Shown: positions 9,944-60,499, counted from the stretch's first letter. The stretch: 64,000 nt of DNA from an uncultured Clostridia bacterium (GCA_948434855.1 CAOJFR010000003.1:977-64976); one strand, 5' to 3'. Numbers and translations: made by a program. The notes: generated by a model not told the origin, from the sequence alone.

Positions 9944-9991
9944 ATGCACTAGACAAAATTTTTAGATTTTGTTATAATATTTTTAGGATTT

Positions 9992-13471: not shown

Positions 13472-13511
13472 AGTGTTTTACTGCTCCTTTAAGGTATTAC
13501 TGCCTACAATT

Positions 13512-19573: not shown

Positions 19574-19604
19574 AAACACACGCTATTTTTGCGTGTGTTT
19601 TTTA
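19574..19604 (+). terminator. Strong rho-independent terminator after the pilin-like gene pair
   Basis: 10-bp perfect stem AAACACACGC / GCGTGTGTTT with a 7-nt loop, then TTT. A second weaker hairpin, AAATACCC...GGGTATTT plus a T-run, lies at ~19630-19670. Confidence 0.85.
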
Positions 19605-19818: not shown

Positions 19819-22800
19819 ATGAAATTCAAATTTCTAACATCACTAATTAGCGCAACGGGTCAAGGGATTGATCCATCATACACCAGAGATGTGTTTATGA
19901 ACAGTTGGGCTAGTCTTGGTGCACTTTTTGGTGTATTATGGAATTTTATTTGTGAAGGGTTTTACATGATTGTGAAATGGCTTTTAGCCTTCACAGATTT
20001 TTTGCAATATTTCATTCAAAAACTCATTGGGTTAGATTATTGGCTAAACAATAATGTTTATTCAATAGAGGGTGCAACCAAAAGTGACTTATTATTTTCA
20101 TTTCTTTATAACGACACCGTTCAAAAAGTTTTCAATACAATGCTTGCAGTTTTTGCAGTGCTTCTCATAATTTTCACAGTATATGCAATAATCAGGTCTG
20201 AGTGGCAATATGTTACTGGTAAAAATTTTGGTGATGGAACAAACTCAAAGGCACAAATCATCACAAACTCAATAAAAGCAATTGCAATGGTTCTTGTTTT
20301 CCCATTGGCACTCACTCTAGGAATAATCTCATCAAATGCAATACTTGCCTCAATAGTCAAGGCGCTAAACATTGACATGGCGTCTACCTTTGGCGGAACA
20401 CTATTTTTAATAGGAAGCAAAAACGCCAATAAATACAGAATATACGCCAAATCGGGGCAGAGGGCTGCAATTTCAGACCAAATAAGTTTTTATGTTAAAG
20501 ATGGCGTAGTCATAAGGTTTGGACCAACAGATTATAACGATGGCTATGTTCATCAAATTTCAGACTACGGAAGATTCTTAGCAGAGCTTAGAAGTGGAAA
20601 TGGTGCAACGCTATACAAAGTTAACACAATGTTTGATTCAATAGACATTGATGATGGCAATTTTTCAGGCTATTGTGTTGGTATGGATATTGGAGATAGC
20701 AGACAATACTACATGGTAAGATGTGGAAGCTCTAATGAAGAGAAAAAGGGAATGTATTATTATCTTAAAAACATTCTCAGAGTAGACATTATGGGCGACG
20801 ATGAAGTTGGCGATGCAGGAAATAGAACAATTTACAATGAAATTGGCAGAGGCAGCTTTGGAAATAGCGTTGGAATGAAAGGCTTCATAAACAACAAATA
20901 TTTTGGCAGTTCAAGTTGTGAGCAGTTGTGGTATGCATTCTGGAATACTTGGGGATATTCTTCAATTTACGATTCAAGATATGATTTTGAAACCAGCTTA
21001 AATTATTCTGTGCTCTCTAGTGCAAATGATGATAACGCAATTTTAGGTCAAAATATTTCACTGCTTAGCTATATGGGCTTAGGAAATTCATTTTCAACAG
21101 TCAAAATGCTATACAATTCAAATCTAATTTCATCATATTTTGATGGTGGACAATTCAATTTAGTTCAACTTCAAAATGAATATAATGTTATGGCAGATGT
21201 TGTAGACTTTATGAATAACAATGGCGTAACACTTTATATGCTAGATATGACTTCAGACATGATTGACTGGAAATATGGCGATTATACCGTTGATAGCAAA
21301 TGGATTTCTTTAGAAAATGATTCTAATAAATTGCATATTCTTCCATCAGGTCCAGTATCAAACGCTGAGGATAGTGCAGATCATCCATTAACAAACACAC
21401 CGCTTGCAAACTCAACAGCATTTGTTGTTGCATATTCCGATATGGCAAATGATATAGAGTCAGGAAACATTCTATACACTGCAAAGGCAGGGGTTTCAAA
21501 TGAGCTTAAGGGTTCAAAATTCATTATGTGTTATAAGGTGGTAGACAAAAATGGAACTTCAACAAGATATGTTCCGCTTGTTAACCGTAAAGAGTTTAAA
21601 GATCCAGTAACTGGAAACACATATACTTTCTCATCAGACTATTATGCTTCAAACTATAGGGGAGTAGTTCTAGCAAAAGGCGTTTTTGCAAACAAAAATT
21701 TATTTGGAAAATCAGGCAATGTTGATGGCTTAAATGGTTCACCAACCTACATCACTGCTGGTTCAGAAATGCAAGATGGCACATCAATAGATGCAACAAA
21801 GCCATATTATTATCACATGGATGTCAGCGGAACTGTATCTCAATATGCTGGTTATGCAGACACTAAAAAAGAGTATGTTTCAACTTATCTTGCAAGCTTA
21901 GGTGGTTTAGTGTTAGATTCAACAGAAGATGCTGATCTTGCAGATCTTGTTATAAGAAACAACGGCTCAAACGAAATTTTCCCAGATAAAGGTTTCAACT
22001 TTAGCAATCTTGAAGAAAATGATCCAAATTTAAATTCAACAAACTCTTTCGCAATTCAAAGACGACTAGAATCTGGTGCTTATGAAAATGTTGAACTCAC
22101 CAAAGATTTGCTGAAAAATTTAAATATAGAGGTAAATTACTTTACAAATGGCGACGCAAATAACACAGCAAAAGCGACAGCAGAGTTTTCTGGAGTGGTT
22201 TCAGGACAATCATTAGAGTTTGAATTTTTAGTAAATGGAAGCAAAAATTATTTCTATATTGGATATTCTGGTTCAGAGTTTTATATAATGACTTTTGATA
22301 AATCAAGTCAAACTTATATAAAATATGACAATGTGGATGAAAATACAGGAATATTAACAAATTTTGCAACGCTAGATAGTTCAATAATAAATGGAGAAGT
22401 TCCAGGTGATGAAAGACTTGGAGTTGACGGAAATAGCCTAGAGATTAGGGAAGGAATTTCAGTTGACACAGCTGTATATCCAAGTTATAGCGTTGTAAAT
22501 GACACAGCTGAAGATGGAAAAATTCTAGTAAATAGGTTTAAAATTTCAGGAGCTGATGTGTTAACTTCTGAGGTTATTCAAACCTTAGTAATTCCATTAG
22601 AGTATAAAATAACCGGAATTGGTTCAGTTTTCTGCTCAGCAACCTATGCTGGACAATCAGTAACAATAAATGATGGAACAGAAAATATAACTTATTCATT
22701 ATTTTCGTTTGTTTATGGTGGAGCAAACTATTATCTCACCGTAAAAAACACAACACAAACATTCTCAATATGTTCATATTCATCTGAAGACGGCAATTTT

Positions 22801-25800
22801 GTGGCTAATGAAACAACCAAAAGTGTAGTTGCAAAAACCAGAAGATATAAACTTATGTATGACTATGTTTCACAATTAAACAATTCTGTGTTCAATCAAA
22901 CCATTGCAACCCTAACACCAGCAGACTTTAAGTTTGAAGACAATGTTAGTGGAAACAGCAATCTTCACCTATTTTCAACTTCAGAAAAGCAGATTGTAAT
23001 GGGTGGAAAATATCAATATGTAAATATTTATTTTGACACAAAGGGAACAGGCAGGCTTGTAACTGTAAATTCAGAAAACAACATTGTGTTTGCAGAACCA
23101 GTGTTAAAGAGTGATGAAAACACAAATTATATTTATCATTCAGATGAATATACATTCAGCTTATATAATTATTACACGGCAGAAACTGGAGATCCAAAAG
23201 TTGTTGAAACCTTTGCAGAAAACATAACAAAAGATAATCAATATGAAAGTGGTTTCCAAATTGATAAAATTAAAATCAATTCAAATTGTTGGTATTTAAA
23301 TTTCCTTTGGAGCAACTGGGATCTTTTCCCAAATGACGGAATTTATAAAGCACAAAGTTCATTATTAAATTCATTCTCTCCAGCTTATAATCAGTTAAAC
23401 AAAAAGGCTTTTGATGAAAAGGTTGATGGTTTTTCAATCACTTTAAATCTAACAAAAGATAATGCGCAATATACAGTAACAGCAACAAATACAGGAATGA
23501 TGGATAGTCATGGTCAGAACAGAATTTATTGCTTTAACTTAGATGGCAAAGATTATTATTTAACCATGCAAATTCATGAAGATGCTTCAGTATCAGTTTT
23601 GGATGCAAATGGCAACAAAATTCAAAATAAATCGCAAAATGCAACATTCATGATTGCACCAACTTATAAGCTTAAAGTTGAAGATAAAGAAATAAATTTT
23701 AATGCTTCAGACTTTGGAAAACCATTCATTCAAAATAATGAAATTATGGTTGAAACTCTTGAAAGTGTAAGTGCTGGCAGTTTAGGAACAAGAACTCTTT
23801 TCATGAAACTTAAAGGTGGAAGTTTAATTTCTTATCAAGAGTCAACAAATGGCAATCCAACAATAATAGCAACTGAAATTGCTGAAAAAAGCACAAAGCT
23901 TGTTGGATTAGGCTTAAAAGAATTTGATCCAACCAAACCAACAGTAGATGGCTTAAAGGGAACCAAGCCAAGCAATGAAGATGGTTGGCAGTTCACAATT
24001 TGGGTTAGCCCAGAGTTTTCATGGAATACTCAAAGCAACTCATATGGTCTTTATAATGGTCGCAACTATGTTGCAACAATATATAAAAATTTAGGGACTG
24101 AGGTTTCTTCAGCTTCAGAAATTGCAAGCAAATCAATCCGCATTCTATATGATGGAAACACATATTACAACATTTCAACACAAAACAAATATGATGGCGA
24201 TGCAGCAATGGTTGCATATTACAACAAAATAAAGGGCTCATTTATAACCAGCTTCCATAGAACAAGTTCAGTTGTAGAAACATTCAGGTCACCAAGTTTT
24301 GCAATATTGCCATTATTAAAATTCAGAATACACTTTGGATTTGGAACCTATTCTATGTCCAGAGATTATGAAATAGGAAATAGCTTCAAGTTGTCTGATG
24401 GCATTCAGTTTGACTATTTCTTTGAAAATGATGATGTAAAACTTTCAACATTCTATGTTCAGTCAAAAATCAGCTATTGGATATTAGTTATAGCATCAGT
24501 GCTAATAATCAAAACATTAATGACGGCACTATGGGGAATTATAAAGAGATTCTATGAAATCACGCTATATTTCCTTGCAATGCCAGCGGTTGCGTCAACA
24601 ATTCCGTTAGACGAGGGCAATAAGTTTAAGAGCGGAATACAAGAGCCTCTCATTAAAAAGGTGCTCAGCACCTATGGTGTAATACTGGGCATAAATGTGT
24701 TCTTCATATTGCTTGCTCCAGTAAGGTCATTATCACAGGTGTTCACAGAGCAAGACATAGCCGAGTCTGGCACATATTTCCTTAAATATCTGCCAATAAC
24801 CGCAGGAATGTTAAATGACTATGTATATATTTTGTTTGTGCTTGTTGCATTCACAATGATAGAGACACTCCCAGGTGTAATTTCAGGGCTTGTTGGTGGT
24901 GATGATGTTCATGCAAAGGGCAAAGAAACCAGAAAGCAAGTTGGAGAAAGTGTGTCATCTGCAGCAAATTTTGTTTCAGGAAAAGATGCGGTTGAAGGCG
25001 TAAAAAAGCTTGGCTCAACAGCTTCAAACTTCATTCCAGGCAAAAACTTATTAACGGCACCTGCAAGGTGGGTAGGAACTAAGGTAGATCGTGGATTAGA
25101 GGCAATTGGACGTGGTTTTGGTGAAGGCTATAGAAACAAACAAGAATCACCAACCAGTTCAGATGGTTCAAAATCAGATAAAGGTGATGCAGGCAGCGGT
25201 GGCGGCGGAAGTGGTGCAGCAAGAGCCAATAACGATCTAGAAGCAGAAAATTCAGAAACAACATCAGCAGAATCAAGTGGTGCTAGTGGTGGTGGTTCAG
25301 AAGCTGGCGAATTTGCAAAAGATGTTGCAGAATTTTCAGGTGAAAATGTTCCAACATCGTCAGTTCCAGCTAAACGAAGCTTAGGAAATAGCTATGCCAA
25401 CAGAATAAAAAATGGTGGATTAGATCTTGCTTACAGATTCAAAAAAGCAGGACTTAGTGCATTAGATATTGTTGGACTTAAGGGTGCATTTAGCAGAGTA
25501 AGAGAAGATGGAACAAAGAGAAATCTTGCATCACACATTTTGGGTATGCCACTCAGAATGGTTGGAGGAGTTCTAAAGAATGTTGTAAATCCTGGTGAAA
25601 CAATCAAAAAAATTGGCACACTTGCGAAGAATACAGCTGGTATTGCTGCTGGACTAGATTTTATGCATATAGCAGCAGGATATAGCAAAGAAACACTAGA
25701 AAATTTAGCACTTCAGGGCGAAAATGTTCCAGAAAGTTTCTTGGTAATGGGCGGAAAGGCTGCCGGAAGAAAAGTTTCAGCTGGTGTTCATGCAATAGGC

Positions 25801-26691
25801 AAAGGCATAGATGGTCAAGTTAAACGCTACAGAAAGTGGTCAGACAACCGTAAGGCAGCAAAAGCCATTGCACACGATATTAAGCATTCAGTAAGTTATA
25901 GGGAAGAAAATAGACACAACGCTGCTGTTTCTGATGAAGAATATGCAGCAACAATCTATAACATGAGACACAAAGGTGAAGGCTTTGACAAACTTTCAGC
26001 CAAGAAGAAACAAAAGTTAATCAACAAGGCTATTGCAGAGAGAACATTGTCAGACAATTCGCTTCTAAGTGGTGCTTCAAAGAGAGATACCAACAGAATC
26101 TTAGCAAACACTGCAAGAAATATAATGGCATCAGGTTCAAATGGACCACTTGCACAAGCACTCAGAAAACTCAATGTAACAGACACATCTGGTTTAGCGA
26201 GTGCAATTCGTTCAAACAAGAGCTTGCTTTCAGCAATTTCAAGCATTGCTTCAAAAAACGGTAAGTTTGCACTTTCACCAAAACAGATGAAAGATGAAAA
26301 ATTGCTCAGACATCTTCAACGTCAAATGAAAGGTGATGTAAAGGCAATGGTAGACAAGATGTTCAGAGATCAATTCAAGAACAATTCAAGTCTCAAAACT
26401 GCAACAAGAAATCAATTGTTATATTTCTTAAGATATAATTCAGAGGCAAGAAACATAATTTGCTCATCGTTAGCAAATAGCAATTATAAACCAAAGGTTC
26501 CAAAGAGTGAAATTGAAAAAGTTGTAGACAAAAAGATTTCAAAAATGAAAATTAAAGAGCAAAAAGCTAATATGTTTAAAGGCGCAATGAATGGTGCTGG
26601 AAAAATTAGTGAAAGAGATATGCAAGCAATTATAGACAAAACTTGCAAAGAAGTTTTGAAAAAACTAGAAGGCCAAAAACAAGGGGGCTAA
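19819..26691 (+). CDS. Giant membrane protein P1 (2290 aa), one of three paralogs; candidate VirB6/TrbL-like channel/surface component with a ~600-aa basic C-terminal tail
   Basis: Start moved to the ATG at 19819 (GGGGGA RBS; the ORF-track start is TTG). The 6.9-kb ORF is open in AT-rich DNA. The N-terminal TM module and the C-terminal polytopic module (24473-24900) align with P2 and P3. The VirB6-like role is inferred from architecture and context only. Confidence 0.8.
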   Translation: MKFKFLTSLISATGQGIDPSYTRDVFMNSWASLGALFGVLWNFICEGFYMIVKWLLAFTDFLQYFIQKLIGLDYWLNNNVYSIEGATKSDLLFSFLYNDTVQKVFNTMLAVFAVLLIIFTVYAIIRSEWQYVTGKNFGDGTNSKAQIITNSIKAIAMVLVFPLALTLGIISSNAILASIVKALNIDMASTFGGTLFLIGSKNANKYRIYAKSGQRAAISDQISFYVKDGVVIRFGPTDYNDGYVHQISDYGRFLAELRSGNGATLYKVNTMFDSIDIDDGNFSGYCVGMDIGDSRQYYMVRCGSSNEEKKGMYYYLKNILRVDIMGDDEVGDAGNRTIYNEIGRGSFGNSVGMKGFINNKYFGSSSCEQLWYAFWNTWGYSSIYDSRYDFETSLNYSVLSSANDDNAILGQNISLLSYMGLGNSFSTVKMLYNSNLISSYFDGGQFNLVQLQNEYNVMADVVDFMNNNGVTLYMLDMTSDMIDWKYGDYTVDSKWISLENDSNKLHILPSGPVSNAEDSADHPLTNTPLANSTAFVVAYSDMANDIESGNILYTAKAGVSNELKGSKFIMCYKVVDKNGTSTRYVPLVNRKEFKDPVTGNTYTFSSDYYASNYRGVVLAKGVFANKNLFGKSGNVDGLNGSPTYITAGSEMQDGTSIDATKPYYYHMDVSGTVSQYAGYADTKKEYVSTYLASLGGLVLDSTEDADLADLVIRNNGSNEIFPDKGFNFSNLEENDPNLNSTNSFAIQRRLESGAYENVELTKDLLKNLNIEVNYFTNGDANNTAKATAEFSGVVSGQSLEFEFLVNGSKNYFYIGYSGSEFYIMTFDKSSQTYIKYDNVDENTGILTNFATLDSSIINGEVPGDERLGVDGNSLEIREGISVDTAVYPSYSVVNDTAEDGKILVNRFKISGADVLTSEVIQTLVIPLEYKITGIGSVFCSATYAGQSVTINDGTENITYSLFSFVYGGANYYLTVKNTTQTFSICSYSSEDGNFVANETTKSVVAKTRRYKLMYDYVSQLNNSVFNQTIATLTPADFKFEDNVSGNSNLHLFSTSEKQIVMGGKYQYVNIYFDTKGTGRLVTVNSENNIVFAEPVLKSDENTNYIYHSDEYTFSLYNYYTAETGDPKVVETFAENITKDNQYESGFQIDKIKINSNCWYLNFLWSNWDLFPNDGIYKAQSSLLNSFSPAYNQLNKKAFDEKVDGFSITLNLTKDNAQYTVTATNTGMMDSHGQNRIYCFNLDGKDYYLTMQIHEDASVSVLDANGNKIQNKSQNATFMIAPTYKLKVEDKEINFNASDFGKPFIQNNEIMVETLESVSAGSLGTRTLFMKLKGGSLISYQESTNGNPTIIATEIAEKSTKLVGLGLKEFDPTKPTVDGLKGTKPSNEDGWQFTIWVSPEFSWNTQSNSYGLYNGRNYVATIYKNLGTEVSSASEIASKSIRILYDGNTYYNISTQNKYDGDAAMVAYYNKIKGSFITSFHRTSSVVETFRSPSFAILPLLKFRIHFGFGTYSMSRDYEIGNSFKLSDGIQFDYFFENDDVKLSTFYVQSKISYWILVIASVLIIKTLMTALWGIIKRFYEITLYFLAMPAVASTIPLDEGNKFKSGIQEPLIKKVLSTYGVILGINVFFILLAPVRSLSQVFTEQDIAESGTYFLKYLPITAGMLNDYVYILFVLVAFTMIETLPGVISGLVGGDDVHAKGKETRKQVGESVSSAANFVSGKDAVEGVKKLGSTASNFIPGKNLLTAPARWVGTKVDRGLEAIGRGFGEGYRNKQESPTSSDGSKSDKGDAGSGGGGSGAARANNDLEAENSETTSAESSGASGGGSEAGEFAKDVAEFSGENVPTSSVPAKRSLGNSYANRIKNGGLDLAYRFKKAGLSALDIVGLKGAFSRVREDGTKRNLASHILGMPLRMVGGVLKNVVNPGETIKKIGTLAKNTAGIAAGLDFMHIAAGYSKETLENLALQGENVPESFLVMGGKAAGRKVSAGVHAIGKGIDGQVKRYRKWSDNRKAAKAIAHDIKHSVSYREENRHNAAVSDEEYAATIYNMRHKGEGFDKLSAKKKQKLINKAIAERTLSDNSLLSGASKRDTNRILANTARNIMASGSNGPLAQALRKLNVTDTSGLASAIRSNKSLLSAISSIASKNGKFALSPKQMKDEKLLRHLQRQMKGDVKAMVDKMFRDQFKNNSSLKTATRNQLLYFLRYNSEARNIICSSLANSNYKPKVPKSEIEKVVDKKISKMKIKEQKANMFKGAMNGAGKISERDMQAIIDKTCKEVLKKLEGQKQGG

Positions 26692-26694
26692 TAA

Positions 26695-29814: not shown

Positions 29815-29863
29815 AATTTTTGCTAAAATTAATATAAAAAAGTGACAAAAAAAGACTAAATAT

Positions 29864-29892
29864 TTGCTTGAAATTCATAAAAGTTATATACT
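29864..29892 (+). promoter_or_regulatory. Candidate internal promoter upstream of the VirB4 gene
   Basis: TTGCTT (29864-29869), 17 nt, TATACT (29887-29892), in the only sizeable gap (97 nt) of the operon. Pattern match only. Confidence 0.25.
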
Positions 29893-29911
29893 TAAAATAA
29901 GGAGAAATCAT

Positions 29912-32599: not shown

Positions 32600-32619
32600 A
32601 ACTAATTAGGAGAAACCCC

Positions 32620-38600: not shown

Positions 38601-41600
38601 AGCAAGTTCAATTTTTGCAAACTGCAGTTTTGAAGAGCTAAGAGAAGACTTTTTAATGAAAGTTTATGTATTAAAGTCGGTTGATGGCAACAGCAAATAT
38701 CTAAAAATAAATGGACAATATTATAACATAACAAATGCGCTTGGTGGTGAAACTGGCAAACTTACAGGGGCAGTCAGCAGTGCAGATGTTGTTGGTGATG
38801 ACTATAGCTATAGCTTTAGGGTAAATGCTGGAGAAATGCTATTTAACCTCAGCAGGTCAAAAGAAGAAATCTCAAGAGAGCTTGTTTCAGGAAACAATAG
38901 CTTGGTATACAACCTAAAAGTTGCAGACAAAACTTACACATATTATAGAAAGGTAGACAAAAATTTAGAGAGAGTATATAGAGTTAGCCTAACAGATTTA
39001 GACACCTACACAATTTCGGTTATGGTTCTAGAAGTAAACTGGGTTCAAAAGCTCATGAATGATATGCAGGTTTTATATCCAGACTTAAACTGGTCAAACC
39101 TCATTGCAACAAATGGCTGGTTAGATACTCTTGGTGACTATCACTCATCATATGCATCAGGTCAGTTCATATCAAGTGGCAACACAGCAAACATAACAGC
39201 AGCCGGCATGGTATTATCAGAATTTTTGTTAACAATTGCAGAAACAAGCTATGATGGCTTTGCAGATTATGAATATAGTTCAGTGTTTGATGAAGACGTA
39301 ATTGATTCATTAATGCTTGCAATGCTTGGCGAAAAGGCTTATCAAAACGTAAAAACACAGGCAAAAGTTTTTGTAGAAATGTTCAATGTAGGCTTTGCAA
39401 AAATCTTAGACGATGTTGCAGACGAAAGGGGCTTAAACATAAAAGATGGCGAAGTAAGCAATCTCACAATGAGCGTATACAAATCATACCTTGCATCAAT
39501 ATTGCTTTCATCAGATCTTGGAGAATATCTCTATACGGTTGCAACAAGAGTATATGCTCAATATGCAATTTATGAATCATTGGCATTTGCAAGTGGAGAC
39601 TATTCAAGTTATTTTGCTTATATCAATGGGCTTGCCGATGAAAATGGCGACACTATAAATGCGTTTAAATATGCAAGTTTCAGAGAACTCATTCAGTTTG
39701 AAAACACAAGTTTAAAAGACGATGCAGTTCCAGTTTACACATTCAATTATTATGCAGTATATAAGTCACTAGCTAATAAAAATGCCACAAAGGCAGAAGC
39801 AAATCTCAGTTTAAATATGGGCAAGTTTGATGCACTTGTTGCATGGGTTGCCCAAGTTGGCGGAATGAACGAGATGGGTGCAAAAGTATGGCTCACTTCT
39901 CGTGGATACAAAGAAAATTACACAGAAGACCAAGTTTCATCCATTGCAAATCATTTTTCAGTTGATGCCCCAACAAGCTATAAGTCAGTGCTCGCTGCAT
40001 TAAAATCATCATATAAAAGCAAATATATGGGTTATCGTGGTTCAACCGAGCGTTTTGATGATAATGATGAAACAAGATTTAGCTATATGCTTCATGTATA
40101 CTATTCAATTCGTCAAGACTTAAACAACCGCATGATGATAACTCTTCCAACATATGTCAGAATTTATGAAGACTATATTGATGGAAATATTGACAGATGG
40201 GGCATTGAGTGCGACATTTCAATTGATGCATCATCAAACTACATTCAAAATTACGACTTATACAAAATTTTGCTATTAACAAACAAAATGTCATATATAG
40301 GCTCATATATTCTTGCATTCTTCCCAGACATTGTTGTAACAATAGAAAATGATGAGGATTTAGAAGATTTTGTTGAAGACTTCAAGGTAGGCAAATATTC
40401 AGTAGACGCAAATTCATTAGTATACAGATTAAAGAGCATTTTCCCAAAATCAACAACCTATGGCAAAATACTAAATAGTGTTTTTGCTACAGATTCGCTT
40501 AGTGTAAGTGATATAATTAAAAAGTTTGAATTATATAGCAATTCAGAAGATGGTTCAGCTAGTTCTTGGAACACTATATTAAAAACAAGAGATAATATAG
40601 AAGCACTGCTTGATGAGCTTTCAGAAGTTATGGATCTTGAGGTTGGTGAAAAAACTCCAAATGGTTCAGTTCACGTAAACTTCACTCATGAAGTTTATAA
40701 TCAAATCTATAATTCGCTTTCAGGCTTGTCAGAAAAACTTAATGATTATATAGGAACACAAAATATATTAGATAAGATTGAAAAGGGAAGCATAACTTTC
40801 ACCTTAGCACAATTTAGCAGCAACTATGTTGAGAGTGGATTTGAGTTCACAATAAAAAATAAGGTATATAAGTTAGACACAGCCATTTCAACTCAAAGAC
40901 TTGCAGAATATGTTTATGGTGGAGCATATTTAACTCAGTTCGGAATTTATCCACAATACACAAGTTCGTCATTCACGGGCATCATTCACCCAACAAAGGC
41001 GGTTGACCCTAATGATGGAACCGTAAAAACCAAACTAAATTGCTTCACAGAGCTAAGAACTTTCGCAGGAAACGTTGCAGATTACACTGCAAAACTATAT
41101 TTCTTAACAAATCTTAAAGACCTTTCAAACAATGTTAGTGATTCAGTGCTTCTAACAGAAGAGTTATACACATCAAGTGGCTATATCGGAAGTTTCTTTG
41201 GAAACACAGGTTCAAGCTACAAAACATCGCTAGAATATTTAATTTTAGACCATATCGTTGCAGAAGAAGAACTCTCTCCAGAAACAATGCTAAGGTTATT
41301 GTTTGGAGATACAGAAGATTCTCTAAATCGCATGGGTTGCACAGATGTATACATAACATTGCTTGCAAAATATTTAAGTAGAAGCAAAACATTCACGGCT
41401 GAAGAAATCAGTTATATTAGTCTAAATCCAAACTTAATAAAAATTGCAGAAAATGGAGCAATCTCTTCTCTGTCAGAAGACTTTATGAGGGCAGGACTTA
41501 GAAGGTATCTTGTTTATATTCAAACAACTGATAGCACAATAAAAACCATAAGCCCAGAAACAGGCTATACATATTTAACCGGCTCAGATATAGAGGGATA

Positions 41601-43620
41601 CTATGGCTTATATATGCCAAATGGCTATAATTCGCATGGCTATTATTCAGATGGAACAAACACCTCAAGCGAAAGAACACACAAAGCCTTCAAAAATGTA
41701 ATGAGCTATTTAACAATAAGTGACGAGCAGGCAGAAGGCGATATAGATCTTGGAATAGAGGGCAAATACGAAAGCTTTGACGGAATGACATTCAAAGACT
41801 TCAAGGCATATTTAACTAAGTCATTAGTAGACTATGAGCAAAATGAATCAGAGACAGGTGCAGAAAACGCATCAAGATATTTAACTTTGTTCAATTTAAT
41901 AAGTGGTCAATTTAATTATCACATAAGTGATGGTGCAAATGGCACAAAATTCATTGGAACAACACTTTCTGTAATCAACAAAGATAAGGAAGAAGGTTCA
42001 AATGTGGTTGGCTATAAAGATGAGGTTATTTATCAGGGCAATGATTATGGAACCAAGTCAGTTTTATATGCAAACTTTAATATAGATAGGTCAACTAGAG
42101 GCACAATATTAAAGCTTTGTGGAATAGAAAATAGACCAATAGAAGAGCTTGTTAACCTAGAATATGATGAGCTTTATGAAAGAAACGGATCATATGATGA
42201 GGCAGATGGCGATGTGTTCATTGTTTGCTCTTATGATGAAGATACCGGAAAATATGTTCCATTCCTTGCAAGCAACAGAAAATATTCAGGCACATTTAAT
42301 GGAACAAATTATATGGACTATTTAAATGATTATGGCTATCGTATTTTCACAGACTATTATGATTCAGAAGAGGGCACAAGGTTTGCTTATCCAATCATTG
42401 CAAAAGGTATAGTAACTCCAGACCTCAAACCAACTGCAATCAAAATACAAGATAATGTTGCAAAATTTTATAGAACAGACATAACAGCAACAGGTGCGGT
42501 AGAAGATACAGCACTTCAAACAATAAATGCTTCAGTTGAAACCACAACTGTTGGCTATGTAAAATATGTCAATGTTTCGTCATTCAATCACATTCAAGCA
42601 GAGGGCGAAAGCAAAACAATGTTTATCGGTTCGTCCGATGTAATGAGCTTCATAAAATCCGATGCAAGCGTATACTATGTTCAATATACAAATGTATATA
42701 ATCTTGCAAAAGCGGATGGATTTGATGCCATATCAGTGCTAGATTCATTCTCAGCATTCTTCAATATGTCAGTTCAAATGCACATCATGATGCTGCTTGG
42801 GTTCATAACCCTTGTTCCATTACTGTTCAAGGCATCCGGAGCAGTGCTAAAGAGAATTTTAGACTTAATTTTCTTAGTGCTTGCAGGACCACTTTGCATT
42901 TCAATGAACTCATTAAAGCATACCGATGAAGAACAACAGGCATATAGTTCTTGGAAGAAATATATGTTCAGCACACTGCTTAGTGTGTTTGGCTTAATAA
43001 TCTCATTCAATCTATACTTTATTATGGTTTCAACAGCCATGAATATGACATTTGTGCAAGCGGGCGATTCAACCATGCAAAAACTCAGCATGATAGGTGG
43101 CTTAGGCTTTGTCACCGCACCAGTATTAAATGCATTCCTCAGAATAATATTTGTAGTAATTGCAACCAACATGATAGAAACAACTGCAGATATGCTTCTA
43201 AACATGATAACTGGCGGAAAGGCAAGCAGTTCACTTGGTTCACCACTTGCAGGTGGCAAAAATGCAATAGATTCAATAGTTGACTTAAAGAACAACATGG
43301 TTGGAGACATTAAAAAAGTCACACATGGAGCAAGAGATATAATTAGCGGAAAGATTTTAATTGAGGCAAAAAATGCGATAATAGACTCGCTCCCAGGCAG
43401 TCAAATAGTAAGAGGAGCTGCAGAGACAGTTGGCAGTGCAAAAAATTACTTAAAATCAAGAGAGCTCTATAAAAAGGCAAGGCAAAAAGGCGTAGGAAAA
43501 CTTGCTGCTCATGCTGCTGCAAAAGAGTTCAGAAATAACTATAAAAAGCAAAGGAAGCAAATTAAAGACAGAAGAACTGGCTACACACAAAGCTTCTATG
43601 GCAGAATGGGCTTAAAATAA
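32620..43620 (+). CDS. Giant membrane protein P2 (3666 aa), paralog of P1/P3 with a ~2,800-residue central insertion
   Basis: RBS AGGAGA before the ATG at 32620. The 11.0-kb ORF is uninterrupted. The N-terminal module (32620-~33540) and the C-terminal core with its TM module (42388-43220) align with P1/P3. The centre contains 8 or more copies of an FS.GF...D..TW...D...Y motif. Confidence 0.8.
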   Translation: MLNMLKSLICLIAAEPCSVVSHGQTLSALTTSFAFIFLKNIFMAVWNFILSMIWAIEKFVLGIMDALQTIVYQFLGIGTTVDDYLNFANNNEMTKTLVTTFRAILVVSIVLMIIFTIIAIIRQEVEVATNAKNKSSEESNKKGPIVMKLFKGIMSAILLPFAMIAIIGAVNSVLTAFNNALQGENQTTIAGQVLATSTYDTNKYRQYANNNKRVPIIINAYNVDDYGADEKEKLFYKIKSLSVQKKLINTATDIDKNLLLAFNDSLIYENNKLSNSSAYADYYENFVCTAEQYQVMADFIDYCELTNTNFYIKAIDDNDIEWKYVDSTIFDAKNMALNITYRDANDLDGDGKTNDTYTVSFSMGFDVTSPISNALKSISALLGLNEFGDMTFNEMDRDKNSINLVQWANEKVSLHFSYGFNINDMKTWTPADEILMYEYYHYASNNTLAEFDFSDLSYENRGNATLDAYKIVYRDYYPEAGAFSKEKVIYCVYINGSYYKIKKSEKETDSYGNKYYVLDENDDVRFLEKGYTILSEETEKAMLKFVGKNNNFSLNNPSSWSYTDQILIYEFYKDLSYNNTLSEYNISDLGKGIEVPTYLIRDYDADGNETSKRFVYLNGTYYAVSSPSSGSHYVLTGSTSGTNFLESIDDKYLTTYYNFSGANGAIKLEDPKNEFGISTNSTTNKTPNDFIIDSDDGLIFTNLENGINYVFDKDVDFKLSFSAGFDFRDVDTWSYKDYFLFYLYAKYLNNSSATIDSLKYTPLPGLIGEYNGKYYYKIQSTLTENNTKFKTVYLSIDDIDNISLQNIKNVINVEITLENNRFSTNDELAFTQVSNPSTIFSKTETETKVFTFSSDVSFENVNLWKMRDYILFLLESRGIISITSNFEDFSYNSVCYKGVNIGTNLTTNLYSFGSENNRIYLNEKYLLGLGYNSLDEFLDTNLITFIAKKLSTSSNGEIKKLLLEKDEVISSIANSDAYSGNTHMLSSLAAMLVNLYGLKINSAENIFEIYSDITKYSYSNPSFVADNLSTYTVLDLAIYFLTGSAVGSYEGYVANVNGDLKYIIGDYAISITSGSLFESTIVQRGSLTSGLINLGSMSLSEYYTSMGLDSKVTTISDSEISFRRADNINYIYVNDITNGNYSALDSILAGLGLAQQTAYNIYTNGTSNFVFLGSKNGKSYFIETNSFNLVNTAMLTKETTITLNSTTKPFTQNGTYTANFNGTTTSGFSFMDAAIYELTNDTSIKSFNVYTSALLGGKSYIFVNGNFIEYNNVAINFGSLAAGYDDYTNLIDILVNNYYGSYVVGNIGTTTNSKEFSYSFADFDVEDISSYTPIRLILHRLGLTEGAEKQVSGTLTKSADGSRTYFVIKITDENGKEQTYNINVTELLTEAGQEKTDKINELYYRAALCYGQTTGGFIAPSEAIENLTNLNTSIENAISSYVVSSYTTNILNFTDTMSEEDISTWNWLDIIHYSIYASYRNTDSFVLYSGVNYSGDKEGLYVGLSFGGTTRFVKFSESLLSENGTIKLQKFSAGVESVEFSLDTNSSLIDLLYYKYTGLQRGNVNYVTIGSGEDARKIYSIQDQTTGEYIYYAGYADLDKESSINSVVSEHEYSYLVKATTQNLQTWNLLDLLIKAAEGNTSDRQYQFSSRIYTIDSKKYILVNGYYINLDLVGARLSEKLADGSTTEYVRTIETTLVPTAESFVGYSARLISNVNISSAFNYGFIKLSANNVSKENKPLVTDPETGNVISSNEVKLYFSEGFSFSDYSTWKNSDFMLYYLFKTNHMDANIKSFQHYVNLGYVPATLYNLETYDEFGNLTVNKVYKVGEGECNFGSFANLNSSTVEAYKATGKFSEFIRAISEYKFINANIWQIQYQRELNNISVSANTNADLIVSITDKPITDPGIGSFGYSVTNEINAKDFLFENYYYFNLNSDNEEIKNLFVDTSITDKFDENTDTEIINFKLSSGFNIEDVSTWTILDYIIVREYARDHSASSIFANCSFEELREDFLMKVYVLKSVDGNSKYLKINGQYYNITNALGGETGKLTGAVSSADVVGDDYSYSFRVNAGEMLFNLSRSKEEISRELVSGNNSLVYNLKVADKTYTYYRKVDKNLERVYRVSLTDLDTYTISVMVLEVNWVQKLMNDMQVLYPDLNWSNLIATNGWLDTLGDYHSSYASGQFISSGNTANITAAGMVLSEFLLTIAETSYDGFADYEYSSVFDEDVIDSLMLAMLGEKAYQNVKTQAKVFVEMFNVGFAKILDDVADERGLNIKDGEVSNLTMSVYKSYLASILLSSDLGEYLYTVATRVYAQYAIYESLAFASGDYSSYFAYINGLADENGDTINAFKYASFRELIQFENTSLKDDAVPVYTFNYYAVYKSLANKNATKAEANLSLNMGKFDALVAWVAQVGGMNEMGAKVWLTSRGYKENYTEDQVSSIANHFSVDAPTSYKSVLAALKSSYKSKYMGYRGSTERFDDNDETRFSYMLHVYYSIRQDLNNRMMITLPTYVRIYEDYIDGNIDRWGIECDISIDASSNYIQNYDLYKILLLTNKMSYIGSYILAFFPDIVVTIENDEDLEDFVEDFKVGKYSVDANSLVYRLKSIFPKSTTYGKILNSVFATDSLSVSDIIKKFELYSNSEDGSASSWNTILKTRDNIEALLDELSEVMDLEVGEKTPNGSVHVNFTHEVYNQIYNSLSGLSEKLNDYIGTQNILDKIEKGSITFTLAQFSSNYVESGFEFTIKNKVYKLDTAISTQRLAEYVYGGAYLTQFGIYPQYTSSSFTGIIHPTKAVDPNDGTVKTKLNCFTELRTFAGNVADYTAKLYFLTNLKDLSNNVSDSVLLTEELYTSSGYIGSFFGNTGSSYKTSLEYLILDHIVAEEELSPETMLRLLFGDTEDSLNRMGCTDVYITLLAKYLSRSKTFTAEEISYISLNPNLIKIAENGAISSLSEDFMRAGLRRYLVYIQTTDSTIKTISPETGYTYLTGSDIEGYYGLYMPNGYNSHGYYSDGTNTSSERTHKAFKNVMSYLTISDEQAEGDIDLGIEGKYESFDGMTFKDFKAYLTKSLVDYEQNESETGAENASRYLTLFNLISGQFNYHISDGANGTKFIGTTLSVINKDKEEGSNVVGYKDEVIYQGNDYGTKSVLYANFNIDRSTRGTILKLCGIENRPIEELVNLEYDELYERNGSYDEADGDVFIVCSYDEDTGKYVPFLASNRKYSGTFNGTNYMDYLNDYGYRIFTDYYDSEEGTRFAYPIIAKGIVTPDLKPTAIKIQDNVAKFYRTDITATGAVEDTALQTINASVETTTVGYVKYVNVSSFNHIQAEGESKTMFIGSSDVMSFIKSDASVYYVQYTNVYNLAKADGFDAISVLDSFSAFFNMSVQMHIMMLLGFITLVPLLFKASGAVLKRILDLIFLVLAGPLCISMNSLKHTDEEQQAYSSWKKYMFSTLLSVFGLIISFNLYFIMVSTAMNMTFVQAGDSTMQKLSMIGGLGFVTAPVLNAFLRIIFVVIATNMIETTADMLLNMITGGKASSSLGSPLAGGKNAIDSIVDLKNNMVGDIKKVTHGARDIISGKILIEAKNAIIDSLPGSQIVRGAAETVGSAKNYLKSRELYKKARQKGVGKLAAHAAAKEFRNNYKKQRKQIKDRRTGYTQSFYGRMGLK

Positions 43621-43650
43621 AAAATAAACAAAAACAAAAGGAGAAAATAG

Positions 43651-46644
43651 ATGTTTGCTAGTGGAGTAACAAGTTTTATTAGCAGTTTGGTGAATGCCGG
43701 TTCATCTGTTTTCTCACGCTTTGTTTGTGCACAAAGTGGCTATGCGTTAGTGCAAACCATATTAAATTTCATTTTTGGCTTGTTATATAATGTGGCAAAA
43801 TATTTGCTTTATATGGTAGACTTAATATTCTCATACATTCAAAAGCTTGCTGGTCTAGACATGGCAATGGATTCGCTAGAGGGTATGCTGTCGCCAGATA
43901 GTGACATTGTGTTCAATTTCCTAGTTTCTGGAAGCGACCTTGTAACAGCAATCCTCAGAAACTTAATTGTGTTAGCGATTGTAGTAATCATCATTTTTGC
44001 AATAGTTGGCATAATAAAAGGTCAATATGATGCAATGAAAAAAAATAGTGCAGCAAGTCCGTTTGACACATTAAAAAGTATGTTCAAGGCGTTCATATTG
44101 TTGTTAGTCACTCCATTCATGACGCTTGGCGGCATCATAGTGTCAGACTTATTGTTGCAAACATTATATAAAGCCACAAATGTCAGTGGAGCAATGTCGT
44201 TAGGCACGCAAGTTTTTGTAACTTCTGCGTCGTCGGCAAATGCCTATAGGGTATATGCGCAAAAAGGAAAGCGTATTCCAATAACGTTTGATGGAACAAA
44301 AAGTTCAGAAATAAATGCATATTTCAGTGAAAATTCTGTTTCAGAGGGCTTCATAAAATATTTGCAAGATAGCAAAAATTCAGGCAACGAAGTCAATCCA
44401 ATATATGCAACCTACATGACATTCATGGCAGCAGATTTCACACCATATCTTTCAATGAACGATGTGCTAAGTGAAAATGAGTCAGTCATAAACACCAAGC
44501 AGCTCTATGACAAATATTATGATTATTACATTCCAAGTGATGATGATGTTTTGTTATATCCCGAGCTCATGAAACTCAGTTCTTATGCAGAGCAATACTA
44601 TGCCATGGCAGATGTCATTGATTTCTGTGTAAGGTCAGGCTCAGAAGTTTATATGAGAACAATAGAGCAGGTATTAAAGAGCGTTTGCAATTTAAGTGAT
44701 GATGTTGCAGATAAAGAAAAGATATTCCAAACAATAATTCGTCATTATGAAATTAAGTTTCATAATGGCTATGACGCAGAAAGTGGTCAGCCAGTAGATG
44801 AAATTTCAATAAAAACAACCAATGACTATTTAATGCAAATAGACAAAAATAGAAATGCGTTAATAAGCTTTAATAGCACATATTTCGCAACAAGCGACAG
44901 TGGCGAACCAGATGTAAAAATGCAAATCAGGTCAATTCACTTGGTTGGAGAAACTGATGAGCTTAGGGGTGCAAAGTTTATTGTTGCCACAAAAAATCAA
45001 GCTTCAGCAAACAACGGAGTCACTCAAGAATATTATCAGCCCCTAGTAAATGGCTATGCAGGAGGCTTCCAAACAGAATTCCAGTCAGATTATATAATGG
45101 ATGGCAACATAATAGTTGCAAAAGGAATTTTCAAAGAAGCAACCTATCCAACAGCAATAAAAATTGCAAGTGGAAGCGTAAATGATACCAATATAATTTT
45201 CTATAGAGAAGACATAGAGTCACAGGCAGTTGGTGAGCTTGGAGATTATTTCTCGTTAAAGGTAGATGCTCCAAAAGGCGGTTTCTTTGGAAGACTTATA
45301 AAAATGATAAAGGCACTCTTTGATCCATCAGAGCTCATTCCAGAAATAAATGTAAACTTTGATGCCTTGGCGCTCACTTACGATAAGTCTAGTGGACCAT
45401 CAGAAGTAGACACACTTCTTAGTGGAAAAATAAGGCTGGGCTATTTCATGAAGTTTTCGCCGACCTATCCAACGGTAGATGGTGTAAGCAATTTCTGCTT
45501 GGCGTTCAATGATTTATATGCTGCACCAAAAATGAACTATTTGCTCTTGGTAATAGGTTCATTCTTACTAGTAAGGGTGTGCTTAAGTGCAATTTCTTCA
45601 TTAATAGAAAGGTCATATGAGTTATTTTTAATATTCTTAACATATCCAGCGGCGTGTGCAACCATACCAATAGATGATGGTGGGGCATACAAAACATGGC
45701 TAAAGGGCTATTTTGAAAGAATATTCAGGGCATATGGCTTCATTCTTGGCATAAATTTTGTATTAATGTTGTTCCCAATAATAGAGAAGATACAGTTTTT
45801 CAGCCAAGATGACATAGGAACATCAAAAATAGTAAGACGAGTGGGCACACTATTTTTCAGTGTAATGTCGGTTCGTCAAATCACAGAAATGCTAAACTTA
45901 TTTGTAGCAATCATGTGTCAGCTTGTTGCCTTCACATTAATAGAGACAATTCCAGAAACCATTTCAACAATAATTGGTGGAAAGGATGCCGCATTAAAGG
46001 TAAAAGACAACAATGTATTCACCAAATTAAAAGACAAGGCGGTCAAAGCAACCACAGCTGTAGCAAAAGTTGCAGTGCCACCGCTTAAAGGCTTAGAATA
46101 TGTGTTTGGTGGAAAGGTTAATAGAAAGAGATTAAGACAAGACTTAAGAAATAAAATTTTAAACAGCACAGGACTTGATGCTTTCTCAGAAATGGGTAAG
46201 TTTATTCCAGGCAGTCAGCTTGTGGCAGAAGCAAAATATAAACTAAATCTAAAAAAGCAAACTGATGAACAAAAGGCTGTTCAAAAAACTCTGTTTGACA
46301 CGCTTAATGATCCACTTGCAAACAAAACTGCAGTTCAAGATGCAATGGCAGAATATCAATCAGCTTCAGTTGCTGCGACTCAAGCTTCAGGTAAAAAATC
46401 ATATGTATGTAAGCTTAACTCAGCACATAAATATACAGATGGTATGATTAGAAGTGAAAATGGCAGAATCAGAAGATATATTATTTCACATGGTGGAACA
46501 AAAGAGTTTAACAATTTCCACGACCTAAGCTATGGAGGCGGATGGCTTTGTCCAAAATGTTTTGAAGATTATAGAGGACAAAATCCAGAGAGCTACAAAC
46601 TTGAAGATATGTCTAAGAAAAAATCAGATTCTGGTGATGCATAA
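43651..46644 (+). CDS. Membrane protein P3 (997 aa), the minimal-core paralog of P1/P2, with a Cys/His cluster in its C-terminal tail
   Basis: RBS AAGGAGA. It contains all the blocks shared with P1/P2, nearly contiguous. TM module 45532-45985. The tail contains C-x5-H ... C-P-K-C. Confidence 0.8.
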   Translation: MFASGVTSFISSLVNAGSSVFSRFVCAQSGYALVQTILNFIFGLLYNVAKYLLYMVDLIFSYIQKLAGLDMAMDSLEGMLSPDSDIVFNFLVSGSDLVTAILRNLIVLAIVVIIIFAIVGIIKGQYDAMKKNSAASPFDTLKSMFKAFILLLVTPFMTLGGIIVSDLLLQTLYKATNVSGAMSLGTQVFVTSASSANAYRVYAQKGKRIPITFDGTKSSEINAYFSENSVSEGFIKYLQDSKNSGNEVNPIYATYMTFMAADFTPYLSMNDVLSENESVINTKQLYDKYYDYYIPSDDDVLLYPELMKLSSYAEQYYAMADVIDFCVRSGSEVYMRTIEQVLKSVCNLSDDVADKEKIFQTIIRHYEIKFHNGYDAESGQPVDEISIKTTNDYLMQIDKNRNALISFNSTYFATSDSGEPDVKMQIRSIHLVGETDELRGAKFIVATKNQASANNGVTQEYYQPLVNGYAGGFQTEFQSDYIMDGNIIVAKGIFKEATYPTAIKIASGSVNDTNIIFYREDIESQAVGELGDYFSLKVDAPKGGFFGRLIKMIKALFDPSELIPEINVNFDALALTYDKSSGPSEVDTLLSGKIRLGYFMKFSPTYPTVDGVSNFCLAFNDLYAAPKMNYLLLVIGSFLLVRVCLSAISSLIERSYELFLIFLTYPAACATIPIDDGGAYKTWLKGYFERIFRAYGFILGINFVLMLFPIIEKIQFFSQDDIGTSKIVRRVGTLFFSVMSVRQITEMLNLFVAIMCQLVAFTLIETIPETISTIIGGKDAALKVKDNNVFTKLKDKAVKATTAVAKVAVPPLKGLEYVFGGKVNRKRLRQDLRNKILNSTGLDAFSEMGKFIPGSQLVAEAKYKLNLKKQTDEQKAVQKTLFDTLNDPLANKTAVQDAMAEYQSASVAATQASGKKSYVCKLNSAHKYTDGMIRSENGRIRRYIISHGGTKEFNNFHDLSYGGGWLCPKCFEDYRGQNPESYKLEDMSKKKSDSGDA

Positions 46645-46662
46645 AACCAAAATTAAAAATAA

Positions 46663-46691
46663 AGACAGGCAGTCATGCTTGTCTTTTTTTT
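46663..46691 (+). terminator. Rho-independent terminator closing the giant-gene operon
   Basis: Stem AGACAGGC / GCTTGTCT (one G-U pair), loop AGTCAT, then TTTTTTT. Confidence 0.8.
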
Positions 46692-60491: not shown

Positions 60492-60499
60492 GGAGGTTT

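Follow-up and report, generated by a model that had tools for sequence, protein, structure and literature searches.

We asked what is encoded by three very large open reading frames (ORFs) that lie on one strand around the gene for a VirB4-type ATPase in the chromosome of an uncultured Clostridia bacterium, and where within these proteins the great length has been added. The sample was a window of 64,000 nt (GCA_948434855.1 CAOJFR010000003.1:977-64976), i.e., the whole stretch of DNA analysed. ORF calling placed the three reading frames, P1, P2 and P3, at the positions given for them in an earlier note on this DNA; the coordinates of these and the other features are collected in Table 1. Translation of P1 begins more likely at its ATG than at the TTG which opens the ORF, because the ATG is preceded by a GGGGG ribosome-binding site. 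We consider it probable that P1, P2 and P3 represent three paralogous, greatly enlarged versions of the CDS16-type membrane subunit of a Gram-positive or mollicute-type type IV secretion system (T4SS), the presumed VirB6 equivalent, within a fixed chromosomal locus of these Clostridia.

Three parts are common to P1, P2 and P3: the N module and the C module, which are membrane modules towards the two ends, and the middle domain between them. Pairwise, composition-corrected BLASTP gave E-values for the N module of 2e-16 (P1/P3), 9e-13 (P1/P2) and 1e-9 (P2/P3), and for the C module of 1e-29, 3e-12 and 3e-11 for the same pairs; P2 3259-3623 was aligned to P3 488-879 at 3e-11. The block running from the MAD motif to the AKG motif gave 5e-4 for P1/P3 (P1 467-636 against P3 315-494) and 2e-4 for P1/P2. 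Modules rich in membrane helices can inflate such scores, and the shared blocks might be nothing but chance or compositional similarity among the hydrophobic segments of unrelated large proteins. When the Smith-Waterman scores of the nine module pairs were compared with those of 300 shuffles, the z values were 19-32 for the N module, 10-12 for the middle domain and 17-48 for the C module. All nine pairs therefore stand 10-48 standard deviations over composition-preserving shuffles, and the composition of the membrane helices is not the cause of the similarity. The middle domain, which is soluble, is common to the paralogs as well, and independent curated profiles match both membrane modules in the correct order (see below). 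The BLASTP values (reaching 1e-29 after composition correction), the shuffles, the NCBIfam matches and the spliced consensus described below together refute chance similarity, to which we assign practically no probability. In a MAFFT alignment of P1-P3 with 15 P3 orthologs every motif block quoted in the earlier note lined up, and its claim that the three proteins share ordered blocks was borne out by all three approaches (BLASTP, shuffles and alignment), with statistical significance between 1e-9 and 1e-29 for the membrane modules.

The identity of the membrane modules was assessed with two NCBIfam profiles, NF045889 ("Mbov_0396 family ICE element transmembrane protein", 306 positions, cut-off 70 bits; ICE, integrative and conjugative element) and NF045848 ("MMCAP2_0566 family conjugal transfer protein", 322 positions, cut-off 90 bits). 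The N module of P2 (aa 46-220) matched positions 2-166 of the former and 2-162 of the latter, with E-values of 1.9e-11 and 1.7e-11 for the fragment alone, and 3.2e-16 and 1.4e-15 for the whole of P2. The C modules of P1 and P3 matched positions ~143-314 of the two profiles. In both profiles the first half is matched by the N module and the second, collinearly, by the C module; these modules are therefore the halves of a single core of ~310 aa. A consensus of 330 aa was then prepared from 42 diverse family members by removing everything between the modules, and this spliced sequence matched NF045848 in one stretch (positions 9-313, 139.2 bits against a cut-off of 90, E 2e-40) and likewise NF045889 (positions 1-302, 106.4 bits against a cut-off of 70). 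The E-values of P1-P3 themselves, 1e-10 to 1e-24, show homology to the CDS16/DUF8208 family as judged by these profile matches, though the scores fall below the NCBI naming cut-offs.

A compact relative, P0240, shows the core without the added length. This protein of 507 aa had been pre-annotated as Pfam DUF8208, scores 171 bits on NF045848 and 120 bits on NF045889, and contains its N module at aa 6-160 and its C module at aa 189-290. Its locus (9697-14097 on its contig) encodes a 96-aa pilin-like protein, P0240 and a VirB4 that is 39% identical to the VirB4 of the window, with VirD4 and a 1425-aa protein upstream; the contig also carries methylases and YodL- and DUF3846-type genes as cargo. 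The arrangement looks like a compact ancestor type, and the contig like a conjugative element. The gene order pilin-like protein, membrane protein, VirB4 is common to the window, to the P0240 locus and to the mycoplasma genes Mbov_0395-0397. The N and C modules are separated by 28 aa in P0240, ~400 in P3, ~1,320 in P1 and ~3,156 in P2. Except for the C-terminal tails, all of the added sequence is in the single loop between membrane helices 3 and 4, and the four natural proteins, with one six-helix core and loops of 28, 400, 1,320 and 3,156 residues, show exactly where the machine tolerates expansion. The proposal that the three proteins represent one core with insertions at differing points is thus strongly upheld by the collinear profile halves, the spliced consensus and the compact relative.

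The loop contains a middle domain of ~220 aa (P3 aa 303-524) that is common to P1, P2 and P3. In the AlphaFold2 model of P3 (overall predicted local distance difference test score, pLDDT, of 59), the region aa 190-520 had a pLDDT of 80-90 and was mixed alpha/beta. The middle domain of P2 was found by hidden Markov model (HMM) in two halves, at ORF aa 293-365 and 3199-3301, ~2,830 residues apart; as the domain is split in P2 at aa 365 / 3199, the giant insert lies inside it. A more distant ortholog of P2 (1983 aa) has its middle domain split at the same place by a smaller insert. The extra residues of P2 had been placed between the MAD and AKG motifs; location and size were correct, but the insertion sits within a shared domain and not merely between motifs. 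Where the middle domain is followed by the C module, P1 exceeds P3 by ~820 aa (aa 641 to 1554 in P1, 524 to 615 in P3), and this insert is acidic and without a hydrophobic segment. The sizes given earlier thus hold, both for the ~2,830 aa of P2 and for the ~820 extra aa plus 586-aa tail of P1. Searches of the PDB sequences by profile and by phmmer returned coiled-coil noise only.

The P2 insert is not uniform. Self-comparison by BLASTP revealed no repeats in P1, P2 or X1039 (the 1039-aa protein encoded after P1); the array of at least eight divergent repeats in the P2 insert was detected only through an ortholog consensus, a motif scan and HMM iteration. The repeat motif, F.LS.GF...D.STW..D.I..YEYY...INGxYY, recurs in the ortholog consensus, and a copy at aa 842-966 which had been left out of model building was recovered by the HMM with an independent E-value of 9e-5. 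Further copies may be hidden in aa 966-1435. Among 24 orthologs, aa 600-2100 of P2 were variable (16-32% identity), the repeat array being the most variable part, whereas aa 2100-2400, 2700-2900 and 3000-3500 were conserved like the core (36-55%), the first two standing as islands at 41-55%. The region aa 2050-3249 (window 38767-42366) gave a mostly helical AlphaFold2 model with a pLDDT of 70. Many W, G, N, Y and E positions are invariant in this region, e.g., VREVNWPQKLMNDMQVIYPDLNW. In P1, identity to the closest relative was 93-98% in the core modules, 48-70% in the insert and 21-41% in the tail, which is the fastest-evolving part of the protein. The suggestion that the inserts are hypervariable while the core is conserved is accordingly right for P1 and only partly so for P2, with its variable repeats and core-like islands; we rejected the idea that the inserts are uniformly hypervariable, since that of P2 holds conserved islands.

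Topology was judged from hydropathy, composition and the positive-inside rule. Hydropathy averaged over the 42 family members showed six peaks, at P3 aa 44-62, 104-122, 147-165, 631-649, 693-711 and 747-765, and there was no hydrophobic segment inside any insert or tail of P1-P3. The family-averaged counts of K+R versus D+E were 4.3/2.3 for the loop 123-145, 2.3/5.1 for the loop 61-99 and 39/62 for the central region; both the tail and the stretch following helix 4 were basic on average. In P1-P3 the inserts are acidic, with many N/S/T/Q and aromatic residues and 0-2 cysteines per 200 aa. This pattern suggests a topology in which the N-terminus would be inside, the loop with its insert outside and the tail inside. 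The expectation that the inserts lie outside the cell is therefore supported indirectly, by the six helices, the K/R counts of the loops, the acidic, cysteine-poor inserts and the basic tails. P1-P3 are thus polytopic proteins (at least five helices) with a large predicted extracytoplasmic loop, encoded beside VirB4 and pilin-like genes.

The tails are the other place where sequence has been added. Their K+R fractions are 0.12-0.29 (0.12-0.21 in P1 and 0.29 in P2, whose tail is short, basic and extends from the C module to 43620). The tail of P3 holds a zinc-ribbon-like motif that is retained in the alignment by the closest orthologs only, and that gave a faint Pfam match to Zn_Ribbon_Prim (E 0.45). 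P1 ends with TAA TAA (26689-26697), and the ATG of X1039 follows directly in the same frame. In seven species P1 and X1039 form a single ORF of >3,289 aa, and in another genome X1039 is absent; because it is fused to P1 in related species, X1039 is a detached continuation of the P1 tail, and the tail of P1 is split, fused or lost between species. X1039 has no Pfam or NCBIfam family. A match of its aa 406-481 to Helitron_like_N, an HUH Rep-type domain, had an E-value of 0.012, far below the cut-off, and was set aside as probable noise.

P1, X1039, VirB4, P2 and P3 form one operon. X1039 and the 911-aa VirB4 lie, in this order, between P1 and P2, and the intergenic gaps in the P1-to-P3 unit, with VirB4 embedded, are 3-49 nt. 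The VirB4 ORF matched NF045975 (VirB4_plasma / Mbov_0397 family) with 596.5 bits (cut-off 590, E 7e-179) and Pfam P-loop_TraG at 4e-20. This setting bears on the possibility that P1-P3 are giant surface adhesins or wall proteins with a borrowed membrane anchor, that they have no functional tie to the secretion ATPases, and that they lie in the cluster only incidentally. The composition of the inserts does resemble that of Gram-positive surface proteins, the tandem array of fast-evolving domains in P2 is adhesin-like, and no Pfam domain links the inserts to secretion. We nevertheless regard this explanation as quite unlikely: what anchors the proteins is a six-helix core, complete and collinear, of a family specific to conjugation, no part of P1 is conserved better than the core modules, VirB4 is embedded among the paralogs within a unit of 3-49 nt gaps bounded by terminator-like hairpins, and the P1-VirB4-P2-P3 unit is kept where the flanks differ.

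Other T4SS genes are adjacent. The first of two pilin-like genes upstream of P1 matched PF18895 (T4SS_pilin) at 1e-4 and NF045849 (Mbov_0395 pilin-like) at 7.6e-6, below both cut-offs, and is homologous to the 96-aa gene preceding P0240 (1.4e-8). The second was above the cut-offs of both PF18895 (2.9e-7, 30.9 bits versus 26.6) and NF045849 (48.6 bits versus 40). A walled Firmicute thus carries two VirB2-like pilin-like genes, followed by a terminator-like hairpin and, ahead of P1, by a distinct promoter-like site; according to a 2025 review (PMC12857230), no Gram-positive T4SS outside the Patescibacteria is known to have pilin genes. The VirD4-type coupling protein, encoded divergently, matched Pfam T4SS-DNA_transf (2.6e-44) and TraG-D_C (2e-29) and NF045973, the CD1115 family (256 bits, cut-off 250), and has orthologs of 61-64% identity in two related loci. 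The gene cluster yielded no wall components of the VirB1 or VirB8 kind.

We examined if the locus belongs to a mobile element or to the chromosome proper. The arrangement is syntenic, with the same flanks, in about 20 species-level metagenome-assembled genomes (MAGs) of gut Clostridia from humans, mice, rabbits and ruminants; the conserved flanks are a racemase gene, X736 (a 736-aa predicted surface protein) and VirD4 upstream, and lspA, rluD, tig, clpP and clpX downstream. Across nine species, identity was 82-98% for VirB4, 85-96% for ClpP, 76-90% for ClpX, 72-82% for trigger factor and 30-67% for P3. The constraint on VirB4 is unusually tight for a secretion ATPase, and housekeeping-like; the three paralogs evolve fast. 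There was no compositional break, the GC content of the cluster being that of its flanks, and among the window ORFs scanned (two ORFs at 60428-62939 lay outside the scan) there was no relaxase, integrase or transposase Pfam family at E<1e-3.

These data also bear on the view that the cluster is the mating-pair-formation module of a still-mobile ICE, with P1-P3 as channel proteins for ordinary conjugative self-transfer. The closest named families do come from ICEs and conjugative plasmids (mycoplasma ICE, CD1115, CD1110, pLS20), a VirD4 coupling protein is present, and P0240 resides on a contig that is like a conjugative element. A mobile ICE would be expected to show an integrase or transposase, a relaxase and a variable site, and this combination was not seen. 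Insertion point and gene order are instead the same in about 20 species-level genomes, with identities that track those of the flanking housekeeping genes; integrase, relaxase and transposase families are absent from the window ORFs scanned; GC content equals that of the flanks; and VirB4 is conserved more than ClpX, which is unexpected for a selfish element. We therefore judge self-transfer by a mobile ICE to be unlikely. The cluster looks like a domesticated machine in being syntenic, in its pattern of conservation and in the absence of mobility genes among the ORFs scanned, and the tight conservation of VirB4 points to a role that matters to the host cell. As a relaxase may be encoded elsewhere in the genome, such a machine might still serve the transfer of chromosomal DNA.

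In a more distant lineage (GCA_964310915.1, on a contig of 917 kb) the unit P1-VirB4-P2 (2031 aa)-P3 (851 aa) lies between fba, gap and tRNA synthetase genes. Since this is another chromosomal site, the four-gene unit has moved or was acquired separately. Apart from this, a second VirB4 clade, 40-46% identical, is present in other Clostridia MAGs with different neighbours (loci L043-L050); these loci have no detectable N or C core, and in L044 an ORF of >3,333 aa directly follows VirB4.

The family is large. A word-indexed search returned 17 P3-like and 82 P2-like proteins (the latter 2,000-4,700 aa), none with a Pfam domain. When profiles were searched exhaustively, 2,174 clusters (50% identity) were retrieved at E<=1e-3, of which 761 reached E<=1e-30; the details refer to the best 150 of the 2,174 clusters, all of them strong. 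Among the matches listed, lengths range up to 7,309 aa, and the giants are for the most part of the P1 kind, in which thousands of residues follow the C module as a tail. Pfam scans of two relatives of ~4,500-4,800 aa and of the compact relative gave nothing meaningful, the family profile had no match in viral contigs, and the literature search found no published description of the family. Because no scanned member has a curated Pfam domain above threshold, the family is invisible to standard annotation of gut metagenomes. The longest protein, P0197 (7,309 aa), has its N module at aa 39-227 and its C module at aa 1664-1827. The Hodor gut megaplasmids encode a "giant uncharacterized protein (7309-7704 aa)" which was read as a Sec-secreted surface protein (bioRxiv 10.64898/2026.02.21.707213); the length of P0197 equals the lower of these lengths exactly, and it may be the same protein.

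We infer that P1-P3 are VirB6-like from their position, their architecture and transitive links to families that are regarded as VirB6-like. The core profile is that of mycoplasma ICE CDS16, described as "likely the VirB6-like component" (PMC12857230). Transfer of the ICE was abrogated or strongly reduced by transposon disruption of a set of ICEA loci that includes cds16 (PMC6030558). A second link is to pLS20 gene 49, a "putative extended-VirB6" (Val-Calvo et al., PMC8557374): NF045890 (pLS20_p028) corresponds to the 974-aa gene right after virD4 in the pLS20 record, i.e., gene 49, and it matched the N module of P2 (2.6e-5, positions 17-154), P0240 (2.3e-15, positions 228-375) and the C-module consensus (0.069, positions 233-325), all far below its 150-bit cut-off. 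TrbL_4 (PF19597) was the most frequent Pfam match among the 42 relatives (5/42, best E 4.8e-5). The homology to VirB6/TrbL that the earlier note had offered thus gains support through the CDS16 and pLS20 gene 49 families, and a significant direct match to canonical TrbL/VirB6 did not appear. Nor did any match to an unrelated transporter family.

If P1-P3 are enlarged CDS16-type subunits, the machine could work as follows. The six-helix cores would join VirB4 and VirD4 in a membrane translocon, in the way that VirB6 occupies the middle of the R388 machine (PMC12857230). A possible base for an extracellular stalk is the middle domain that the three proteins have in common, and the inserts of P1 and P2 would extend this stalk through the peptidoglycan to the surface as a conduit, a contact structure or both, standing in for the wall-spanning components VirB1 and VirB8. 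The fast-evolving repeat array of P2 would then be the exposed part, facing a target or phage, and the basic, putatively cytoplasmic tails (P1 tail plus X1039) might dock ATPases or substrates. Candidate functions could be exchange of chromosomal DNA, delivery of protein, or uptake from neighbouring cells.

Several observations weigh against the proposal that P1-P3 are enlarged VirB6 equivalents, or against parts of the model built on it. The evidence base is MAG sequence throughout, and the expression, assembly and topology of the proteins are putative. The native scores were below the cut-offs, being 87.0 (P3), 76.6 (P1) and 57.4 bits (P2) on NF045848 (cut-off 90), and 57.0, 41.5 and 59.7 bits, respectively, on NF045889 (cut-off 70). 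P1-P3 had no Pfam match at E<0.1, including PF04610 (TrbL/VirB6), and the C-module consensus matched TrbL_4 with an E-value of just 0.2. By hhalign the family profiles gave no significant alignment to PrgH of pCF10 (probability <1%), so that the match to PrgH which the earlier note proposed to look for was not seen, and the alignment to pLS20 gene 49 was marginal (E 0.031). The topology derives from the positive-inside rule and composition, and the membrane parts of P3 were modelled poorly by AlphaFold2 (pLDDT 50-60). The segment P3 aa 655-673, with a conserved YP..A.AT.P.D motif, is moderately hydrophobic and could be a seventh helix or a re-entrant loop; if the seventh helix is real, the tail would flip to the outside. 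Foldseek found no match at E<=0.001 in PDB or BFVD for the models of P3 or of P2 2050-3249 and, for lack of such a fold relative, the stalk or conduit role of the inserts is wholly conjectural. No other part evolves as fast as the tails, and for a docking platform this is unusual.

Table 1. Positions, within the 64,000-nt window, of P1-P3, their modules and the neighbouring features
Feature	Position	Strand	Basis or remark
P1, extended VirB6-like paralog, 2290 aa from ATG	19819..26691	+	ORF opens at TTG 19780
P1 N module (TM1-3 of core; TM, transmembrane helix)	19921..20475	+	BLASTP to P3 2e-16, P2 9e-13; HMM coordinates
P1 middle domain, intact, NEYNVMADVVDF ... VVLAKGVF	21151..21699	+	BLASTP to P3, alignment, HMM coordinates
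P1-specific region, ~910 aa, middle domain to C module, predicted extracellular	21700..24435	+	
P1 C module (TM4-6 of core), ending MIETLPGVISGLVGG	24436..24927	+	BLASTP to P3 1e-29; NF045848 2e-21, positions 182-314/322
P1 basic C-terminal tail, 586 aa, predicted cytoplasmic	24928..26691	+	
X1039, 1039-aa soluble K/E-rich protein	26695..29814	+	TAA TAA then ATG, same frame as P1
VirB4-type ATPase, 911 aa, N-terminal hydrophobic hairpin	29864..32599	+	NF045975, P-loop_TraG
P2, extended VirB6-like paralog, 3666 aa	32620..43620	+	
P2 N module	32734..33276	+	NF045889, NF045848, NF045890
P2 middle domain, part one, EQYQVMADFIDY ...	33463..33681	+	HMM positions 6-82, i-E 7e-13; BLASTP to P1 1.6e-4
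P2 giant insert, ~2,833 aa, inside middle domain, predicted extracellular	33682..42180	+	
P2 array of at least 8 divergent ~130-aa repeats (aa 400-2085)	33817..38868	+	motif scan, HMM iteration
P2 middle domain, part two, YPIIAKGIV..KPTAIKIQDN	42181..42489	+	HMM positions 126-215, i-E 3e-4
P2 C module, ending MIETTADMLLNMITGG	42745..43236	+	BLASTP, HMM
P3, most compact of the three paralogs, 997 aa	43651..46644	+	
P3 N module	43744..44292	+	NF045848 positions 1-161/322, E 2.9e-9; HMM coordinates
P3 middle domain, contiguous, mixed alpha/beta	44557..45222	+	AlphaFold2, alignment, HMM
P3 C module, ending LIETIPETISTIIGG	45493..46020	+	NF045848 1.4e-24, positions 184-312/322; NF045889 2.1e-15
P3 tail, Cys/His zinc-ribbon-like motif (C920, H926 ... 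C967-P-K-C970)	46408..46560	+	sequence reading
Terminator-like hairpin closing the P1-P3 operon, before lspA	46661..46686	+	11-bp stem + T run; consensus match only
X736, 736-aa predicted surface protein, signal-like N-terminal helix, C-terminal membrane anchor	14383..16593	-	downstream of VirD4
VirD4-type coupling protein	16611..18566	-	divergent from pilin/P1 side
VirB2-like T4SS pilin-like gene 1, 99 aa, two-helix hairpin	18739..19038	+	PF18895, NF045849
VirB2-like T4SS pilin-like gene 2, 128 aa	19166..19552	+	PF18895, NF045849
Terminator-like hairpin 3' of pilin genes	19574..19600	+	10-bp stem + T run; consensus match only
Promoter-like site ahead of P1	19679-19708		10/12 positions, extended -10; consensus match only

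X736, for which no Pfam or NCBIfam family was found, is weakly conserved beside VirD4 in the same two loci that carry the VirD4 orthologs. It might be a counterpart of CDS14, the surface lipoprotein that is needed for transfer of the mycoplasma ICE. The remaining window genes are housekeeping genes (comEC, holA, lspA, rluD, tig, clpP, clpX, engB, mraW, the gene for a penicillin-binding protein, murE and mraY), and as the penicillin-binding protein, MurE and MraY are encoded, the host cells make peptidoglycan. A 419-aa ORF at 6030-7289 fuses a PnuC-like nicotinamide mononucleotide transporter to a GNAT acetyltransferase domain. A 182-aa antisense ORF (42774-43322, minus strand) overlaps the C module of P2 and is probably a chance ORF.

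Of the known systems, mycoplasma ICE CDS16 is like P1-P3 in its core profile and in its neighbours, CDS15/Mbov_0395 (pilin-like) and CDS17/Mbov_0397 (VirB4). It differs in being compact (~310 positions), whereas P1-P3 have a central loop of 400-3,156 aa and tails that add 140-1,600 aa, and in being single, whereas the window has three paralogs. The mycoplasmas are without a peptidoglycan wall and the window host is walled; the mycoplasma ICE is transposase-driven and mobile, and the window locus is chromosomal and syntenic across species. pLS20 gene 49 shares with P1-P3 a polytopic N-terminal part, added hydrophilic sequence and a place beside VirD4; unlike them, it has ~900-970 aa with a C-terminal extension, and is plasmid-borne and single copy. 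The VirB6-like proteins of the MPF_FA class (Tn916 Orf15, ICEBs1 ConG and pCW3 TcpH) have 700-900 aa against ~300 aa for classical VirB6 (PMC12857230) and are, like P1-P3, Gram-positive polytopic channel proteins exceeding the classical size, but P2 is 4-5 times their size, and each of them is present in a single copy; P1-P3 had no match to their Pfam or NCBIfam families at E<0.1.

Extended VirB6 paralogs are described for the Rickettsiales (Rvh/VirB6-1 to -4; Bao et al. 2009, as summarized in PMC12857230). With these, P1-P3 share several tandem paralogs, big hydrophilic domains, a chromosomally fixed system and host-associated bacteria, and the general extended-VirB6 architecture, i.e., helices with large hydrophilic domains in tandem paralogs, is seen in P1-P3. 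The Rickettsiales systems are diderm, alphaproteobacterial P-type systems, and the likeness is an analogy of architecture which carries no claim of membership. Extended or multiplied VirB6 proteins are thus already known from Rickettsiales, pLS20 and the MPF_FA elements (700-900 aa). New here are the scale (3.7 thousand aa in this window, 7.3 thousand in the family) and the placing of the expansion within a single loop of the CDS16-type core, and also that three paralogs share an operon which is fixed in the chromosome of a walled Firmicute. The function of enlarged VirB6 proteins is an admitted open question in the field (PMC12857230); if the giant loops truly span the wall, they could explain how such systems manage without VirB1- and VirB8-like wall components.

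The closest parallel in setting is the T4SS of the Patescibacteria (PMC12102498), which is likewise found in monoderms on the chromosome, has PF18895 pilins, VirB4, VirB6-like and VirD4 proteins and no nearby relaxase, and was apparently co-opted from conjugation. That system also has VirB1-, VirB3- and VirB8-like genes, and a six-pilin array in the strain studied, and belongs to a different phylum; giant VirB6-like paralogs are not described for it, and its essentiality was shown, whereas for the window the sole hint of it, an indirect one, is that VirB4 is more conserved than ClpX across nine species. Uptake from neighbouring cells was proposed as its function (PMC12102498). The cluster described here is, after that of the Patescibacteria, a second candidate for a conjugation-derived secretion system that is fixed in a monoderm chromosome, strongly constrained, and accompanied by pilin-like genes. 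Tentatively, and with more doubt than confidence, we suggest that a lineage of gut Clostridia may have turned a mycoplasma-ICE-like conjugation machine into an organelle of the core genome, its presumed VirB6 subunit having triplicated and grown into surface structures that span the wall and comprise 1-3.7 thousand residues (at most 7.3 thousand in the wider family), with an obligatory cell-to-cell role in uptake from or delivery into neighbours. If this is true, the organelle would be the Firmicutes counterpart of the essential secretion system of the Patescibacteria.

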